Shown piece by piece: positions 1-5,017 of a DNA stretch of 5,017 bases; within the stretch, counting starts at the first letter, position 1; every line of letters starts with the position of its first letter. This stretch comes from a virus. Its lineage: Duplodnaviria > Heunggongvirae > Uroviricota > Caudoviricetes. The DNA is taken from IMG/VR virus record IMGVR_UViG_2585427728_000001. The stretch is one strand, 5' to 3'. The translations under genes and the position numbers were made by a program. Below the pieces are notes generated by a model. That model saw only the letters and a program-made list of their open reading frames with translations, was not told the DNA's origin and ran no database searches.

Positions 1-351
1 ACTGTATGTCACGGGCATACAGGAAAAGACATCATGCTCGGTAAAACGTATACCAAAGCAGAATGCAAAGCCCTCCTGAATAAAGACCTTGCCACGGTCG
101 CCAGACAAATTAACCCGTACATCAAAGTCGATATACCGGAAACAATGCGCGGCGCTCTTTACTCATTCGTTTACAACGTGGGTGCTGGCAATTTCAGAAC
201 ATCGACGCTTCTTCGCAAAATAAACCAGGGCGATATCAAAGGCGCATGTGATCAGCTACGTCGCTGGACATATGCTGGCGGTAAGCAATGGAAAGGGCTG
301 ATGACTCGCCGTGAGATTGAGCGTGAAGTCTGTTTGTGGGGGCAGCAATGA
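1..351 (+). CDS. R: Phage endolysin, phage-21/RrrD-type lysozyme (T4-lysozyme-like, GH24); 5' end lies upstream of the window
   Basis: Frame 1 is open from nt 1 and reads [48 protein letters not shown]...[13 protein letters not shown], ending at TGA 349-351. From memory this is collinear with the C-terminal ~115 aa of phage 21 R / E. coli RrrD lysozymes. The N-terminal SAR/catalytic region is outside the window, so only the C-terminal part is seen. Confidence 0.9.
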
Positions 352-815
352 GCAGAGTAACTGCGATTATCTCCGCTCTGGTTATCTGCATCATCGTCTG
401 CCTGTCATGGGCTGTTAATCATTACCGTGATAACGCCATTACCTACAAAGCCCAGCGCGACAAAAATGTCAGAGAACTGAAGCTGGCGAACGCGGCAATT
501 ACTGACATGCAGATGCGTCAGCGTGATGTTGCTGCGCTCGATGCAAAATACACGAAGGAGTTAGCTGATGCGAAAGCTGAAAATGATGCTCTTCTGCGGA
601 AGCTTGATAATGGTGGCAGGGTGCTCGTCAAAGGAAAATGCCCTGTGCCATCCTCTGCCGAAACCTCCAGCGCCTCCGGCATGGGCAATGATGCCACCGT
701 CGAACTCTCTCCAGTTGCTGGACGAAACGTTCTCGATATCCGGGACGGAATTATCCGCGACCAAACAGCACTGAGAACGCTTCAGGAATACATTAGGACG
801 CAATGCCTTCGATGA
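348..815 (+). CDS. Rz: Rz i-spanin (inner-membrane spanin subunit)
   Basis: ATG at 348 overlaps the endolysin stop (ATGA). The product [23 protein letters not shown]... has an N-terminal transmembrane segment followed by charged, coiled-coil-like sequence ([50 protein letters not shown]) and a C-terminal cysteine. It sits directly after the endolysin and carries an embedded +1-frame lipoprotein gene, the defining Rz/Rz1 architecture. The ORF track starts at GTG 336; ATG 348 is preferred. Confidence 0.9.
568..774 (+). CDS. Rz1: Rz1 o-spanin (outer-membrane lipoprotein spanin subunit), embedded in the +1 frame of Rz
   Basis: 68-aa ORF lying entirely inside Rz in a different frame. The N-terminus [21 protein letters not shown] is a signal peptide with a lipobox (VAGC), followed by a proline-rich stretch [11 protein letters not shown] typical of Rz1. 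AGGAG lies about 7 nt upstream of the ATG at 568. The N-terminus resembles lambda Rz1 (MLKLKMML...) from memory. Confidence 0.85.
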
Positions 816-990
816 TAGCGATAATTTTACTCATCATCCTTCACATCTGGCTCTGTAGACAGGGTGGTGATCACTTCTGGAGTAAATCCAGATTAAACAT
901 CTCATTGCTGATGCTTGATATTGAGCATCTGGCGCGCAGTAAGGGGCTGCGTTGAGATAAGAGCCAGTTCATTACAAATACCAGGATTTA

Positions 991-1015
991 GCCTCGCATT
1001 CGCGGGGCTTTTTAT
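991..1015 (+). terminator. Putative rho-independent terminator downstream of the lysis cassette
   Basis: GCCTCGC-ATTC-GCGGGGC forms a 7-bp GC-rich stem (one G-U pair) with a 4-nt loop, immediately followed by TTTTTAT. It lies about 175 nt after the Rz stop and about 140 nt before the Rha start. Confidence 0.45.
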
Positions 1016-1157
1016 ATCTGAATTTCACAGCGCATCTCACGCGCATATTAACGAGAGCCTTTCAGTAAGCGAGCCTGAGAAATGCCGTTATAGGTGGCGA
1101 CCTCTCTCGGGCGGCTTTTCTGTGAGACAGGCTCACTTTCTAAAAGGTAAAGACGCT

Positions 1158-1682
1158 ATGAATAATCATTCAGTTATTCCAGCCTTCGACTTCCGAGAAA
1201 TGGTGCAAGCCAAAAACGGAGAGGTCGTTACCACATCCAGAAAAATTGCCAAGTACTTCGGCAAGCGACACGGTGATGTTCTCAGGAAAATCGAGCAGGT
1301 TAAGGCTGATTGCTCGCGTGAGTTTAGCCAACGCAATTTTGCGTCGGCTGATTATATCGATGAGCAGGGCAAGGTTCGCCCGATGTACAGCCTGACGAAA
1401 GATGGCTGGATCATGGTTGTGATGGGGTTCACCGGGAAAGCTGCTGCGGCAATCAAGGAGAGCTATATCGCAGCATTCAACTGGATGGCAGAACAACTGA
1501 GCCGCCGCATGGCAATTGGCGAAGAAATGCAGCACCGCTACGCCATCAAAGAAACACGCTCAAAGCTGAAAGGTACGATCGGCAGTCGGTTAATGAACGA
1601 ACGGAAGAAAGAGAAGCGTGTCCTGGCTGTCGAGCATGAATACATCTTGCAGGTGACACAGCCTGAACTGCTGATTAATTGA
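1158..1682 (+). CDS. rha: Rha-family phage regulatory protein (Phage_pRha domain)
   Basis: 174-aa product starting MNNHSVIPAFDFREMVQAKNGEVVTTSRKIAKYFGKRHGDVLRKIEQ...MYSLTKDGWIMVVMGFTGKAAAAIKESYIAAFNWM. The TTSRKIAKYFGKRHGDVLRKI and LTKDGW..MGFTGK..A..K..YI.AF motifs are characteristic of the Rha family. ATG 1158 follows AAAGGTAAAG. The longer ORF in the track (from 915) is a TTG-initiated extension that runs through the terminator hairpin and is rejected. Confidence 0.85.
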   Translation: MNNHSVIPAFDFREMVQAKNGEVVTTSRKIAKYFGKRHGDVLRKIEQVKADCSREFSQRNFASADYIDEQGKVRPMYSLTKDGWIMVVMGFTGKAAAAIKESYIAAFNWMAEQLSRRMAIGEEMQHRYAIKETRSKLKGTIGSRLMNERKKEKRVLAVEHEYILQVTQPELLIN

Positions 1683-1984
1683 AGATGTCATTACAAAGCC
1701 TATCTACGGGGGGCTTGATAATGGCTTATACCCTGCACGGGATAACTTAACTGATATCCCTTTTAACGGATAAAGGTATTCAAGCCTGACACATCATGCG
1801 CTGTATCGTCGCCGTATTCCCGCATTAACCATGACCGTAGCCTGACGGGGAATTCCTTCTGCGTGAGTGTGCGGGAATAATCAAAAACGATGCACACCGG
1901 GTTATTAACGCGTCAACTGAACGCGGGGTTGCTCTTCATGTCAGCCAGTCCGGTGCAGGGGTAGAAGAAACCGGACGTTATGGT

Positions 1985-2395
1985 TTAGTGTGGAAACATT
2001 TGTGATGTGCTCTGTATGTTTTCAGTAAAGAGTAATGAATTATCAAAGGTATAGTAATATCTTTTTTGTTCGTGGATATTTGTAACCCACCGAAAAACTC
2101 CTGCTTTAGCAAGGTTTCTTCTGTATTCCTGAAATGTGATCTCTCTGGATTTCAGCTTATTAGAGGTCGTTTCTATAAGATGCCTATCCTTTGAAAATTT
2201 GACAGACACAATGTTTTTTAGGCCCTTTAATAACACTGTATTATCATTTTTTAATACAATATGAACATTCTCTGTGGCTAAATAGTAAATGTAATGTGAG
2301 ACATTGTGACGTTTTAGCTCAGAATAAAACCATTGATAGTTTAAATCGTTTCGAACTTTATCAAATATTTGTTTAAAAATGACTACCTGATCCAT
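1985..2395 (-). CDS. DUF1398-family prophage protein (YdfO/YbcV-like), AT-rich cargo gene
   Basis: Minus-strand ORF. The preferred start is ATG at 2395 ([27 protein letters not shown]...), preceded by GGAAGG about 8 nt upstream, giving 136 aa. The track start at 2410 has no Shine-Dalgarno sequence. GC content is about 32% against about 58% in the terminase region. Assignment to the YdfO/YbcV (DUF1398) family is from memory of E. coli cryptic-prophage proteins and is unverified. Confidence 0.7.
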
Positions 2396-2454
2396 AGATA
2401 AACCTTCCATGTGATATGAGGGGGGGCGTAGTCTGCACGATTATCTAAATTGCT

Positions 2455-2688
2455 TCAATCTGGTCTGATCTGTTTTCTGAGCAATTCAGTAATGTCACTC
2501 TTTTCTTTGTTTGCTTCAGGAGAAACTCTTTTTTCTGAGCACAGTCTCCGGCGGCAGGCTTCAATGACCCAGGCTGAGAAATTCCCGGACCCTTTTTGAT
2601 CAAGAGCGATGTTAATTTGTTCAATCATTTGGTTAGGAAAGCGGATGTTGCGGGTTGTTGTTCTGCGGGTTCTGTTCTTCGTTGACAT
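2455..2688 (-). CDS. DUF3950-family small protein (YnfO/YlcI-like), predicted ribbon-helix-helix-like DNA-binding protein
   Basis: 77-aa minus-strand ORF: MSTKNRTRRTTTRNIRFPNQMIEQINIALDQKGSGNFSAWVIEACRRRL.... A basic N-terminal tail, a short beta-strand (NIRFP), helix (NQMIEQINIALDQ), G-x-S/N turn (KGSGN) and second helix (FSAWVIEACRRRL) fit the ribbon-helix-helix pattern. It resembles E. coli prophage YlcI/YnfO proteins from memory. Confidence 0.8.
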   Translation of the reverse strand: MSTKNRTRRTTTRNIRFPNQMIEQINIALDQKGSGNFSAWVIEACRRRLCSEKRVSPEANKEKSDITELLRKQIRPD

Positions 2689-2857
2689 GAGGTTGTCCCG
2701 TATTCAGTGTCGCTGATTTGTATTGTCTGAAGTTGTTTTTACGTTAAGTTGATGCAGATCAATTAATATGATACCTGCGTCATAATTGATTATTTGACGT
2801 GGTTTGATGGCGTAGATGCACGTTGTGACATGCAGATGATAATTATTATCATTTTGC
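2689..2857 (-). promoter_or_regulatory. AT-rich region expected to hold the promoter of the minus-strand DUF3950/DUF1398 genes; no -35/-10 assigned
   Basis: This is the only non-coding sequence upstream (minus-strand sense) of the 2688 start codon. It is AT-rich (for example TTGATGCAGATCAATTAATATGATACC, GATAATTATTATCATTTT). The same segment corresponds to the lambda right-end sequence just before cosQ. No confident promoter hexamers could be assigned by eye. Confidence 0.3.
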
Positions 2858-3070
2858 GGGTCCTTTCCGGCGATCCGACAGGTTACGGGGCGGCGACCTC
2901 GCGGGTTTTCGCTATTTATGAAAATTTTCCGGTTTAAGGCGTTTCCGTTCTTCTTCGTCGTAACTTAATGTTTTTATTTAAAATACCCTCTGAAAAGAAA
3001 GGAAGCGACAGGTGCTGAAAGCGAGCTTTTTGGCCTCTGTCGTTTCCTTTCTCTGTTTTTGTCCGTGGAA
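2858..3070. other. cos: Lambda-type cohesive end site cos (cosQ 2858-2864, cosN 2888-2899, cosB about 2900-3070)
   Basis: The sequence ...GGGTCCTTTCCGGCGATCCGACAGGTTACG|GGGCGGCGACCTCGCGGGTTTTCGCTATTTATGAAAATTTTCCGGTTTAAGGCG... matches the joined right and left ends of phage lambda as recalled. GGGTCCT is cosQ, GGGCGGCGACCT is the 12-nt cohesive end, and the following ~170 bp up to the Nu1 start correspond to cosB (Nu1 R-sites and IHF site), whose sub-sites were not mapped individually. Confidence 0.9.
2888..2899 (+). other. cosN: cosN 12-nt cohesive-end sequence GGGCGGCGACCT (terminase nicking site)
   Basis: Exact match to the lambda left cohesive end, preceded by the lambda right-end sequence GATCCGACAGGTTACG. 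Confidence 0.9.
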
Positions 3071-3076
3071 TGAACA

Positions 3077-3622
3077 ATGGAAGTCAACAAAAAGCAGCTG
3101 GCTGACATTTTCGGTGCGAGTATCCGTACCATTCAGAACTGGCAGGAACAGGGAATGCCCGTTCTGCGAGGCGGTGGCAAGGGTAATGAGGTGCTTTATG
3201 ACTCTGCCGCCGTCATAAAATGGTATGCCGAAAGGGATGCTGAAATTGAGAACGAAAAGCTGCGCCGGGAAGTTGAAGAACTGCGGCAGGCCAGCGAGAC
3301 AGATCTCCAGCCAGGGACTATTGAGTACGAACGCCATCGACTTACGCGTGCGCAGGCCGACGCACAGGAGCTGAAAAATGCCAGAGACTCCGCTGAAGTG
3401 GTGGAAACCGCATTCTGTACTTTCGTGCTGTCGCGGATCGCAGGTGAAATTGCCAGTATTCTCGACGGGATCCCCCTGTCGGTGCAGCGGCGTTTTCCGG
3501 AACTGGAAAACCGACATGTTGATTTCCTGAAACGGGATATCATCAAAGCCATGAACAAAGCAGCCGCGCTGGATGAACTGATACCGGGGTTGCTGAGTGA
3601 ATATATCGAACAGTCAGGTTAA
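3077..3622 (+). CDS. nu1: Terminase small subunit Nu1 (lambda gpNu1-like, winged-HTH cosB-binding protein)
   Basis: 181-aa product MEVNKKQLADIFGASIRTIQNWQEQGMPVLRGGGKGNEVLYDSAAVIKWYAERDAEIENEKLRREVEELRQ.... This is the same length as lambda gpNu1 and essentially collinear with it as recalled. It has an N-terminal helix-turn-helix, sits immediately downstream of cosB, and its 3' end overlaps the start of gene A by 26 nt as in lambda. Confidence 0.97.
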   Translation: MEVNKKQLADIFGASIRTIQNWQEQGMPVLRGGGKGNEVLYDSAAVIKWYAERDAEIENEKLRREVEELRQASETDLQPGTIEYERHRLTRAQADAQELKNARDSAEVVETAFCTFVLSRIAGEIASILDGIPLSVQRRFPELENRHVDFLKRDIIKAMNKAAALDELIPGLLSEYIEQSG

Positions 3623-4835
3623 CAGGCTGCGGCATTTTGTCCGCGCCGGGCTTCGCTCACTGTTCAGGCCGGAGCCACAGACCGCCGTTGAATGGGCGGA
3701 TGCCAATTACTATCTCCCAAAAGAATCCGCATACCAGGAAGGGCGCTGGGAAACACTGCCCTTTCAGCGGGCCATCATGAATGCGATGGGCAGCGACTAC
3801 ATCCGTGAGGTGAATGTGGTGAAGTCTGCCCGTGTCGGTTATTCCAAAATGCTGCTGGGTGTTTATGCCTACTTTATAGAGCATAAGCAGCGCAACACCC
3901 TTATCTGGTTGCCGACGGATGGTGATGCCGAGAACTTTATGAAAACCCACGTTGAGCCGACCATCCGCGATATTCCGTCGCTGCTGGCGCTGGCTCCGTG
4001 GTATGGCAAAAAGCACCGGGATAACACGCTCACCATGAAGCGTTTTTCCAATGGTCGTGGCTTCTGGTGCCTGGGCGGTAAAGCGGCAAAAAACTACCGT
4101 GAAAAGTCGGTGGATGTGGCGGGTTATGATGAACTTGCTGCCTTTGATGAGGATATTGAACAGGAAGGCTCTCCGACGTTCCTTGGCGACAAACGTATTG
4201 AAGGCTCGGTCTGGCCAAAGTCCATCCGTGGCTCCACGCCCAAAGTGAGAGGCACCTGCCAGATTGAGCGTGCAGCCAGTGAATCCCCGCATTTTATGCG
4301 TTTTCATGTTGCCTGCCCGCACTGCGGGGAGGAGCAGTATCTTAAATTTGGCGACAAAGAGGCGCCGTTTGGCCTCAAATGGACGCCGGATGACCCCTCC
4401 AGCGTGTTTTATCTCTGCGAGCATAATGCCTGCGTCATCCGCCAGCAGGAGCTGGACTTTACTGATGCCCGTTATATCTGCGAAAAGACCGGGATCTGGA
4501 CCCGTGATGGCATTCTCTGGTTTTCGTCATCCGGTGAAGAGATTGAGCCGCCGGACAGTGTGACCTTTCACATCTGGACGGCGTACAGCCCGTTCACCAC
4601 CTGGGTGCAGATTGTCAAAGACTGGATGAAGACGAAAGGGGATACGGGAAAACGTAAAACCTTCGTGAACACCACGCTCGGTGAGACATGGGAAGCGAAA
4701 ATTGGCGAACGTCCGGATGCTGAGGGTAAGCGACTCGTCAGAACCGTATTGATATTTACTGAGAGCTCAGATCAACTTTCCAGGGCAACAGATCGCGTAC
4801 CCGGTTTGCCGGCCAGTCCTGGATATGTTCAATGA
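3597..4835 (+). CDS. A: Terminase large subunit gpA, C-terminally truncated by an IS66-family insertion (probable pseudogene; A-derived part 3597-4724, last 36 codons read into the IS)
   Basis: MNISNSQVNRLRHFVRAGLRSLFRPEPQTAVEWADANYYLPKESAYQEGRWETLPFQRAIMNAMGSDYIREVNVVKSARVGYSKMLLG... follows lambda gpA (641 aa) as recalled, including the Walker-A-like VKSARVGYSK, up to ...GETWEAKIGERPDAE (codon 376). Lambda then continues VMAERKEHYSAP..., whereas here the frame reads GKRLVRTVLIFTESSDQLSRATDRVPGLPASPGYVQ and stops. The nucleotide sequence from 4726 onward is unrelated to lambda. Confidence 0.92.
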   Translation: MNISNSQVNRLRHFVRAGLRSLFRPEPQTAVEWADANYYLPKESAYQEGRWETLPFQRAIMNAMGSDYIREVNVVKSARVGYSKMLLGVYAYFIEHKQRNTLIWLPTDGDAENFMKTHVEPTIRDIPSLLALAPWYGKKHRDNTLTMKRFSNGRGFWCLGGKAAKNYREKSVDVAGYDELAAFDEDIEQEGSPTFLGDKRIEGSVWPKSIRGSTPKVRGTCQIERAASESPHFMRFHVACPHCGEEQYLKFGDKEAPFGLKWTPDDPSSVFYLCEHNACVIRQQELDFTDARYICEKTGIWTRDGILWFSSSGEEIEPPDSVTFHIWTAYSPFTTWVQIVKDWMKTKGDTGKRKTFVNTTLGETWEAKIGERPDAEGKRLVRTVLIFTESSDQLSRATDRVPGLPASPGYVQ

Positions 4836-5017
4836 CGTAACGCAGCCACTTTTCTGGCTCCACATTGTTCAGACGGCATGTGCCGATCAGCGAGTACAAC
4901 ACCGCCGCATGTTCACCACCGCTGTCGGAACCCGCGAACATCCAGTTTTTCCGGCCTACGGCCACTCCCCGTAAGGCGTTCTCTGCGATGTTGTTGTCGA
5001 TTTCCACCCAGCCATTA
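4726..5017 (-). mobile_element. IS66-family insertion sequence, one terminus plus the 3' end of its transposase gene; the element continues beyond the window
   Basis: Homology to lambda A ends at 4724-4725. The new sequence starts GTAAGCGACTCGTCAGAACCG..., and GTAAGCG is recalled as the typical start of IS66-family terminal inverted repeats. The minus-strand ORF 4756-5017 encodes an IS66 TnpC-like C-terminus. The boundary is uncertain by about 2 nt, and the other IS end and any 8-bp target duplication are outside the window. Confidence 0.85.
4756..5017 (-). CDS. IS66-family transposase (TnpC-like), C-terminal fragment; the 5' part of the gene lies beyond the window end
   Basis: The minus-strand frame is open to the window edge (...NGWVEIDNNIAENALRGVAVGRKNWMFAGSDSGGEHAAVLYSLIGTCRLNNVEPEKWLRYVIEHIQDWPANRVRDLLPWKVDLSSQ, stop at 4756-4758). 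The NxAEnALRxxAVGRKNWxFAGSxxGGExAAxxYSLI motif is typical of IS66-family transposase C-termini. The M at 5007 in the track is an artefactual GTG start. Confidence 0.9.
   Translation of the reverse strand, partial: NGWVEIDNNIAENALRGVAVGRKNWMFAGSDSGGEHAAVLYSLIGTCRLNNVEPEKWLRYVIEHIQDWPANRVRDLLPWKVDLSSQ

Follow-up and report, generated by a model that had tools for sequence, protein, structure and literature searches.

A conserved and very probably structured RNA element between the lysis and packaging genes of lambdoid phages

We analysed a 5,017-nucleotide stretch of DNA (the window, virus record IMGVR_UViG_2585427728_000001 of IMG/VR), which is the late region of a lambdoid prophage, its positions 1-4725 being 99.96% identical to a prophage of Escherichia coli HS30-1. 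We are concerned with the intergenic region (1683-1984) in which a Rha-family gene on the + strand and a DUF1398 gene on the - strand converge. In this region an original prediction, made from the sequence of the window alone, had pointed out a perfect 10-bp inverted repeat with an internal palindrome, which it took for a possible structured RNA, a site of protein binding or of recombination, or a scar left by a small inserted element. In the model presented here, the inverted repeat is helix P2 of an about 180-nt conserved structured RNA domain at 1797-1976, which is referred to below as the element. The element and its predicted helices, in the coordinates of the window, are the following.

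1797-1976, + strand: the whole conserved non-coding module (the element), delimited by homology with lambda, DLP12, Shiga-toxin (Stx) phages and mEp460
1802-1894, + strand: P1-P4, a long imperfect hairpin of 93 nt with a predicted energy of -32.8 kcal/mol, the core of the element
1803-1809 with 1887-1893, plus the pair 1802/1894, + strand: helix P1, 8 bp in all, from the alignment
1815-1829 with 1867-1879, + strand: helix P2, which contains both arms of the inverted repeat (1815-1824 and 1870-1879)
1835-1840 (CCGUAG) with 1859-1865 (CUGCG.G), + strand: helix P3, from the alignment
1841-1843 with 1848-1850 (CCU/GGG), + strand: apical helix P4, with a variable loop and no covariation
1909-1913 (CGCGU) with 1921-1925 (ACGCG), + strand: helix P5, a small hairpin
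1948-1954 (GUCCGGU) with 1970-1976 (ACCGGAC), + strand: helix P6, with its foot 8 nt before the stop codon of the opposite-strand DUF1398 gene

The two arms of the repeat, TATTCCCGCA (1815-1824) and TGCGGGAATA (1870-1879), are exact reverse complements with a 45-nt spacer, precisely as had been described, and the window contains no other perfect inverted repeat that reaches 10 bp with a loop no longer than 60 nt. As a single-sequence observation, the repeat alone is not beyond chance; at least one such repeat is present in 22% of 500 dinucleotide-preserving shuffles (mean 0.34 per shuffle), and the significance of the repeat derives only from the comparison with related sequences. The palindrome GGAATTCC (1849-1856), which overlaps the 3' side of P4, and the mini-repeat formed by CCGT (1835-1838) and ACGG (1845-1848) are also present, but they are incidental, being confined to the subtype of the window and DLP12, while other subtypes carry GGAACTCC or GGAGACTCC in place of the palindrome, and CCGC...ACAG. 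In the same way, the repeat does lie between the rha and DUF1398 genes, but the convergence of the two is accidental context, because interchangeable accessory genes flank a fixed element. In the model, the DNA repeat, the EcoRI-like palindrome and the gene convergence have no role of their own. The coordinates originally given, 1815-1879, are within a real unit, but the real unit, 1797-1976, is about three times larger.

The limits of this unit are given by homology. BLAST searches with the intergenic region resolve two modules, one at about 1711-1774, shared with HK022-like and Salmonella phages, and the other at 1797-1976. The homology of the latter starts sharply at TGCG (1797) and stops at the foot of P6 (1976), the element being 80-93% identical in lambda, DLP12 of E. 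coli K-12, 933W, Sp5-type and other Stx phages, and mEp460, with unrelated flanks. With a covariance model of the element, the window scores 200 bits, the K-12 DLP12 copy 140 and the Sakai Sp5 copy 160. In lambda, the copy occupies the gap from the bor promoter region to the stop codon of lambdap78, the DUF1398 gene, and we take it to lie at about 46,875-47,040. The K-12 copy is the borD-ybcV spacer (NC_000913.3, 579,004-579,182) and is unannotated, and the Sakai Sp5 copy (1,275,436-1,275,628) lies beneath the hypothetical ORF ECs_1218.

It is noted that the inverted repeat had been proposed to be sought at other prophage junctions, and it is indeed conserved in hundreds of lambdoid phages and prophages. 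In the collections of phages and E. coli genomes, on which the taxonomic range given here rests, the element is found in 432 phage records, which come almost entirely from Escherichia, Stx-converting or Shigella phages, with six more from Salmonella phages, and in 4,583 of 5,426 complete E. coli genomes (84%), where it occupies 11,735 places, with a median of 2 and a maximum of 11 copies per genome. 695 of these places are on plasmids, and an annotated feature lies beneath the element at almost none of them. A scan of species-representative genomes used a 15-base pattern, which is too short and gives chance matches, its sole true matches being contamination-like. Lambda-type copies scoring 118-135 bits in contigs assigned to Pseudomonas sp. 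30_B (48,442 bp), a Chromatiales metagenome-assembled genome and [Kitasatospora] papulosa are most likely lambda DNA contamination of the assemblies. A candidate homologue in HK022, a 4.9-bit match of the model on a stable hairpin after Rz, was rejected, the score being at noise level and the same stretch being annotated elsewhere as the start of a KilA-N gene.

The structure was predicted with RNAalifold for the + strand from an alignment of 80 distinct copies, the columns of which are used to number the pairs below. The stack formed by P1 (8 bp), P2 (11-13 bp) and P3 (6 bp) is interrupted by internal loops, one of 5 and 7 nt, the other of 5 and 1 nt. In P1, pair 22/110 is UG in 38 copies, UA in 36 and CG in 2, and pair 25/107 is CG in 66 and UG in 14. 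P2 extends the inverted repeat by the pairs U1825:G1869, A1828:U1868 and C1829:G1867, and 98.2% of its cells are paired over the 80 copies (helix 3 of the alignment); double changes occur at 36/94, from UA to CG (3 sequences), at 37/93, from CG to UA (2 sequences), and at 41/89, from CG to GC (3 sequences, of the lambda type). In P3, pair 56/79 is CG in 41 copies and UG in 37, and pair 54/81 is CG in 78, UA in 1 and UG in 1, and P3 is retained in two variants that have lost the 9-nt apical part with P4 (L060 and L071). P5 is the least conserved part, the lambda type having a deletion here, with pair 127/146 being CG in 60 copies, UA in 6 and UG in 3. P6 closes a conserved loop of 15 nt ending in GGAAGAA, with pair 174/196 being GC in 43 copies, UA in 19 and GU in 10, and pair 170/200 (helix 9) GC in 45, GU in 18 and UA in 9. 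When pair statistics were used to look for further helices or for pseudoknots, many short alternatives rich in G+C came up, of which none is convincing except one that pairs columns 75-81 with columns 88-94. Note also that the length of a run of G varies from 5 to 10 across copies in the loop of P6 (columns 179-190; for example L065, L079 and L123) and near P5, which could reflect either sequencing error or real instability of the homopolymer.

The evidence that this structure is under selection, and that the selection acts on the RNA of the + strand, is as follows. Over the 80 copies, 97.5% of the cells of the predicted pairs are paired, and neither the observed paired fraction nor the observed covariation score is attained by any of 500 column shuffles. 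When the partners are slid by 1 to 3 columns, the pairing is only 33-60%, and double changes are present in eight pairs. Moreover, all pairs of the model together comprise 3,352 Watson-Crick cells, 333 G:T, 26 A:C and 70 other mismatches, and P2, leaving aside the pair with a G:U consensus, has about 79 G:T against 3 A:C. As transitions are a priori equally likely on both strands, this large excess of G:T over A:C points to selection on the + strand RNA: transitions are tolerated only if a G:U pair is kept on that strand. In addition, the P1-P4 hairpin is more stable than its shuffled counterparts in 30 distinct homologues (mean z -2.4, median -2.6). The element thus has the features by which a conserved structured RNA motif is generally recognised, with the caveat that the copies are not independent, and of the options named in the original prediction it is the structured RNA that the conservation, the compensatory changes and the strand-specific excess of G:U uphold.

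Some observations weigh against this assignment. All copies share at least about 78% identity, many being recombinants of one another, so that the cells counted for the covariation are not independent events. The fold of the whole element is no more stable than shuffles (mean z -0.7). The local hairpin of columns 75-81 with columns 88-94 competes with both P2 and P3, and its pair 75/94 is CG in 37 copies and UA in 32. Folding of both strands of the window over 1795-1980, a check of the kind suggested at the outset (for 1800-1890), is likewise no better than shuffles for the region as a whole (z -0.40 and -0.12 for the two strands), and only the P1-P4 hairpin stands out. With these observations taken into account, we still consider it very probable, from the comparison of sequences, that the element is a conserved structured RNA of the + strand, that is, of the late transcript.

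The genes and landmarks around the element in the window, with the gene names taken from the RefSeq annotation of the HS30-1 prophage, are the following.

34-351: C-terminus of the endolysin
336-815: Rz
1158-1682, + strand: Rha-family gene, an interchangeable accessory gene 5' of the element and outside it
2410-1985, - strand: DUF1398 gene, homologue of lambdap78 and ybcV, with its stop codon at 1985-1987, an interchangeable accessory gene 3' of the element and outside it
2688-2455, - strand: YlcI-family gene
2888-2899, + strand: the cosN overhang sequence GGGCGGCGACCT, a landmark 912 nt 3' of the element
3077-3622: Nu1/nohD

A panel of neighbour proteins was mapped on about 125 loci, comprising IMG/VR contigs with a flanking anchor and phage records, and the order found is invariant. 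R and Rz on the + strand are followed by nothing, by Bor on the - strand or by Rha on the + strand, then by the element on the + strand, then by nothing, by DUF1398 on the - strand, by p79 on the + strand or by YlcI on the - strand, and finally by TerS and TerL on the + strand. At all of the about 125 loci the orientation of the element is that of the late operon, and the terminases downstream, at a distance of 270 nt to more than 1 kb, are of two unrelated types. In the minimal arrangement the element begins about 18 nt past the stop codon of Rz. The element therefore has a fixed slot, which adjoins the lysis cassette (S-R-Rz) on its 3' side and precedes cos and the terminase genes, and bor, rha, DUF1398 and ylcI are accessory genes inserted on either side of it.

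Among these loci some copies deserve a separate description. One IMG/VR contig (L016) carries two full copies, at 5052-5242 and 6002-6192, which are 950 bp apart and bracket a + strand ORF, and this suggests that the element serves as a homology anchor for the insertion of accessory genes. In copies of the 933W/Sp5 type (L005, and L250 at 9437-9629), a 5' arm of the lambda type (CCCGGA) occurs together with a 3' arm of the Stx type (UGCGGGG), a combination that gives a G:G mismatch in P2 and looks like a recombination breakpoint within the element. A 7-bp inverted repeat, ATGATAAccaTTATCAT, stands directly after P6 in L006 (at about 2690-2720) and in other Stx-type loci like it, in phages that have the second terminase type; this repeat may be a protein-binding site near the packaging genes.

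We turn to the readings that were rejected. The original statement that the stem is not a classical intrinsic terminator holds, there being no U-tract after the stem on either strand, and within 1797-1976 the terminator scan found no intrinsic terminator on the + or the - strand. On the + strand, P2 is followed by AUCAAAAACG and P6 by GUUAUGG, the sequences after P6 varying among copies and not being U-rich. A candidate - strand terminator for the DUF1398/ybcV gene was rejected, since it is a lenient match in the K-12 copy (L128, 3128-3103), seen in the lambda type only, with none in the window or the Stx type. Scans for promoters upstream of the element gave nothing in the window, K-12 or Stx-type copies; with no terminator, unrelated upstream flanks and no promoter-like site upstream, a terminator-ended gene for a trans-acting small RNA was discarded as well. 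A riboswitch or leader was discarded on the ground that the following gene varies and is often on the opposite strand, with terminases of two unrelated types further on. The search of Rfam that had been proposed gave no family for the element: with Rfam 15 and the whole window, there is no match in 1797-1976 at E values up to 10, and with a 216-nt sub-window the only matches, to microRNA, snoRNA and twister-P5 models, are noise at 11-13 bits. ARAGORN found no tRNA or tmRNA. In open-access full text no paper was found to contain the exact sequence of the element, while a description in an older subscription journal is possible, and the open-access literature on ybcV/borD and lambdap78 holds nothing concerning this RNA. 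The element is a widespread, unannotated RNA motif, a new member of a known general kind.

That the element instead encodes a small protein, namely ECs_1218 of Sakai Sp5, the product of a 44-codon - strand ORF at 1763-1897 or that of a 10-codon ORF at 1796-1828, is very improbable. It is true that hypothetical proteins are annotated over the element in some records, and that one + frame stays open across the 98-nt hairpin in 60 of the 80 copies, as does one - frame in 70; over the whole element, however, an open frame is found in at most 35 of 80 copies in any frame. No frame has a synonymous or third-position excess (synonymous fraction 0.29-0.35 observed against 0.24-0.28 expected), the insertions and deletions in the element are not multiples of three and include one-base changes, and the start codons are not conserved, the Stx type having no ATG at the start of ECs_1218 and the lambda mini-ORF stopping after 2 codons. 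The ORF over the element in mEp460 was rejected as coding by the same evidence on frames and substitutions. The annotated ORFs on the element (L250 9476-9679, which is ECs_1218; L002 2488-2601; L007 2710-2958) are in different frames and on different strands and are not conserved, and such hypothetical proteins are probably spurious gene calls. Still less credible is a repeat arisen by chance or left as the scar of a small transposable element, such as a miniature inverted-repeat transposable element (MITE). The frequency of equally good repeats in shuffled windows, given above, would be in its favour, yet hundreds of phages keep the repeat, with compensatory changes, all copies share one syntenic site and one orientation, and the arms have no target-site duplication (GTCGCCG on the left, ATCAAAA on the right). 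The scar proposed in the original prediction is thus set aside. The same applies to its protein-binding site at the level of DNA, or operator, as the arms change in a compensatory manner, the deviations are strand-asymmetric and the palindrome is not conserved.

Some data on expression are available for the K-12 copy. In the data of Adams et al. 2021 (PMC7815308, supplementary file 2), a + strand Rho termination region is placed at 579,345 (score 2.33, p = 4.8e-5), with reads upstream and downstream of it (windows of 800 nt) of 218 and 34 without bicyclomycin and of 311 and 113 with bicyclomycin. This position is 163 nt downstream of the DLP12 copy, and therefore untranslated + strand RNA exists near the K-12 copy even without induction. 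A promoter-like + strand site, CTGACA-17-TATGAT, with 10 of 12 matches, is present in K-12 (L128 3156-3184) and at the same place in lambda; it covers the loop of P6 and the stop codon of ybcV, occurs in lambda-type copies only, and in K-12 falls inside the upstream one of the two windows of the read counts. Judged by its sequence, this site could drive the Rho-terminated antisense RNA of ybcV at 579,345. The annotated RNAs of K-12 do not include the element, the supplement of an Hfq cross-linking, ligation and sequencing of hybrids (CLASH) study has nothing for the K-12 copy, and the supplements of a study of Hfq in enterohaemorrhagic E. coli (EHEC; Tree 2014) do not mention the Sp5 locus or its coordinates. 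In a CRISPR interference screen of lambda, bor and lambdap78 are non-essential, which is uninformative on the RNA (PMC10695390).

Based on these results we propose the following mechanism. The domain is very probably read from the + strand, to which the Q-dependent late (PR') transcript belongs, and the P1-P4 hairpin together with P6 would act in cis on the long polycistronic late mRNA. The hairpins would provide a processing site and a barrier to 3' exonucleases, by which the 3' end of the segment of the lysis genes would be defined and stabilised, its decay would be uncoupled from that of the untranslated or antisense stretch beyond, and a stable structured RNA fragment would be left behind. 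This cis-acting mechanism seems to us the most economical reading, and we offer it tentatively, its chances being clearly below even; the best explanation taken whole fares slightly better, falling somewhat short of an even chance. We arrive at the mechanism because the element has a fixed position immediately 3' of the lysis cassette, because it is independent of the type of terminase and of the flanking accessory genes, because the selected strand is that of the late mRNA, and because no terminator, promoter or regulated downstream gene is present.

Several points count against the proposed mechanism. The element is absent from HK022 and HK97-type phages, and therefore it is not required by every lambdoid late operon. 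The datasets examined contain no processing site, 3' end or discrete RNA species at the element, and from 578.8 to 579.3 kb Adams et al. list no curated 3' end for the + strand (PMC7815308); moreover, the + strand reads of K-12 could start at the promoter-like site and not cross the element. A length of 180 nt, three domains and conserved unpaired stretches, of which AUUAAC, AAUAAUCAAAAAC and the GGAAGAA loop are strongly conserved, are more than a simple stabiliser would require, and the size, the three-domain layout and the conserved single strands suggest a fit to a specific partner that is at least as good. These last features lead to the main rival explanation, which is that the element is a non-coding RNA (ncRNA) in its own right, released by processing of the late transcript or made from its own promoter, which would act in trans by pairing with phage or host RNAs or by sequestering a protein with its conserved loops, possibly in the lysogenic as well as the lytic state. 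The sharp limits of conservation coincide with the outermost helices and the unpaired stretches and the P6 loop are highly conserved, as would be expected for such an RNA; the element is kept in the old cryptic prophage DLP12 and at up to 11 copies per genome; and RNA of the same strand is present near the K-12 copy without prophage induction. Further in its favour, the AgvB, AsxR and Pas RNAs lie in lambdoid late operons near accessory-gene slots (PMC4104026; bioRxiv 10.64898/2026.05.13.724894). However, an intrinsic terminator is lacking and P6 is followed by no U-tract, the upstream flanks differ by context, so that there is no shared promoter, the promoter scans are empty, the element is missing from the annotated RNAs of K-12, and the supplements of the EHEC study are silent on the Sp5 locus. 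We therefore regard this explanation as possible but doubtful. The more specific version, an unrecognised phage ncRNA, carried by lambda and most E. coli genomes, which would be freed from the late transcript or produced at a low level in lysogens and would act in trans with a specific partner, and for which possible roles are to sequester an RNA-binding protein of host or phage, to counter host defence or to regulate RNAs of the host or of competing prophages, seems rather unlikely.

The element could also be a conformational switch in the late transcript, in which P2 and P3 would alternate with the local hairpin and which would tune the amount of transcription or translation that runs on into cos and the packaging genes, for example through Rho access or a pause. 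The pairings are exclusive, with the pair 75/94 co-varying as noted above, the left arm has a further possible partner in the apical GGGGA stretch, and in K-12 the Rho termination region lies just downstream. Yet the co-variation of 75/94 follows the division between two major lineages and may reflect linkage and not selection, the remaining pairs of the hairpin being invariant or G:U; the following gene varies and is often on the opposite strand; no ligand-binding family matches; and RNA polymerase modified by Q is known to resist Rho and hairpin terminators. We consider a switch unlikely. The same low likelihood is given to a role at the level of DNA, either as a recombination anchor for swaps of accessory genes or as a protein-binding palindrome or cruciform. 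Such a role would fit the position of the element right at the boundaries of the mosaic, between sequences that are unrelated, the two copies that bracket an inserted gene in L016 and the seemingly recombinant interior of the 933W and Sp5-type copies. It leaves the compensatory changes unexplained, however, the excess of 333 G:T over 26 A:C has no meaning for duplex DNA, and the orientation relative to late transcription is invariant. A recombination role may well coexist with an RNA function as its by-product.

The proposed cis-acting barrier has precedents. Hairpins cleaved by RNase III lie between genes of the T7 mRNA and in lambda sib, and 3' stem-loops block exonucleases. Like the element, the sites R0.3 to R18.5 of T7, lambda sib and the RNase III site of the N leader are long imperfect hairpins with internal loops that stand between gene blocks; these known hairpins act in cis, and the 3' stem left behind stabilises the upstream message. 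The element differs from them in having no similarity in sequence or in Rfam, in its longest uninterrupted helix of 11-13 bp, in its two extra hairpins and long conserved single-stranded stretches, and in being known here from sequence. The repetitive extragenic palindromic sequences (REP), the bacterial interspersed mosaic elements (BIME) that contain them, and the malE-malF stabilisers are also untranslated hairpins on the 3' side of a block of genes, where they could halt 3'-to-5' exonucleases, whereas REP are short and dispersed over many contexts and the element has a single site, is much larger and shows both sequence conservation and covariation. The put RNAs of HK022 are alike in being structured multi-stem RNAs of a lambdoid operon that act in cis on their own transcript; they differ in that put sites lie just after early promoters and make RNA polymerase terminator-resistant, and HK022 is without the present element. 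Antitermination of the late operon is already supplied by Q.

For the reading as an ncRNA, the closest comparison is with AgvB, AsxR, PasA-D and STnc100, which are likewise ncRNAs in the lambdoid late operon beside interchangeable accessory genes. These RNAs are known to end in intrinsic terminators. They lie between Q/PR' and the holin gene and are 50-90 nt long, while the element follows Rz, is about 180 nt long and has no terminator, and it matches no Rfam model of the AgvB/AsxR/Pas/STnc100 type. RNAs of this group are widespread in pathogenic and commensal strains (PMC4104026; bioRxiv 10.64898/2026.05.13.724894).

As regards the significance of the element, it is noted that lambda is the reference temperate phage, and that its Rz-cos interval is usually seen as a dispensable holder of accessory genes such as bor. 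A selected RNA of 180 nt there would add an unannotated functional part to the late operon of lambda and the Stx phages, and would explain the doubtful hypothetical proteins annotated at this spot in several genomes. It would also give a fixed landmark for two insertion slots of accessory genes that carry bor/iss and other virulence-linked genes, and a testable case of post-transcriptional organisation in a 25-kb phage mRNA. If the element is only a stabiliser hairpin, its interest is moderate; a specific partner, if true, would make it considerably higher, and if the ncRNA reading is true, a functional RNA gene has been overlooked in the best-studied phage genome.

Finally, we note some other features of the window. 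The non-coding module at 1711-1774, just 3' of rha, is a second conserved module, being 88-97% identical in HK022, HK446, mEp043, JEP4 and some Salmonella phages, all of which are without the element described here. The large terminase gene is broken near 4726 by an IS66-type element, where the identity with the HS30-1 prophage stops (at 4725), and a - strand ORF at 4756-5007 is what we take, by recognition of its sequence, to be the C-terminus of an IS66-family transposase; since the large terminase gene is interrupted, this prophage is probably defective. A strong hairpin at 2991-3062, at which weak Rfam matches at noise level are seen (patAB leader, mir-9201), is presumably the lambda-type stretch that separates cos from Nu1.

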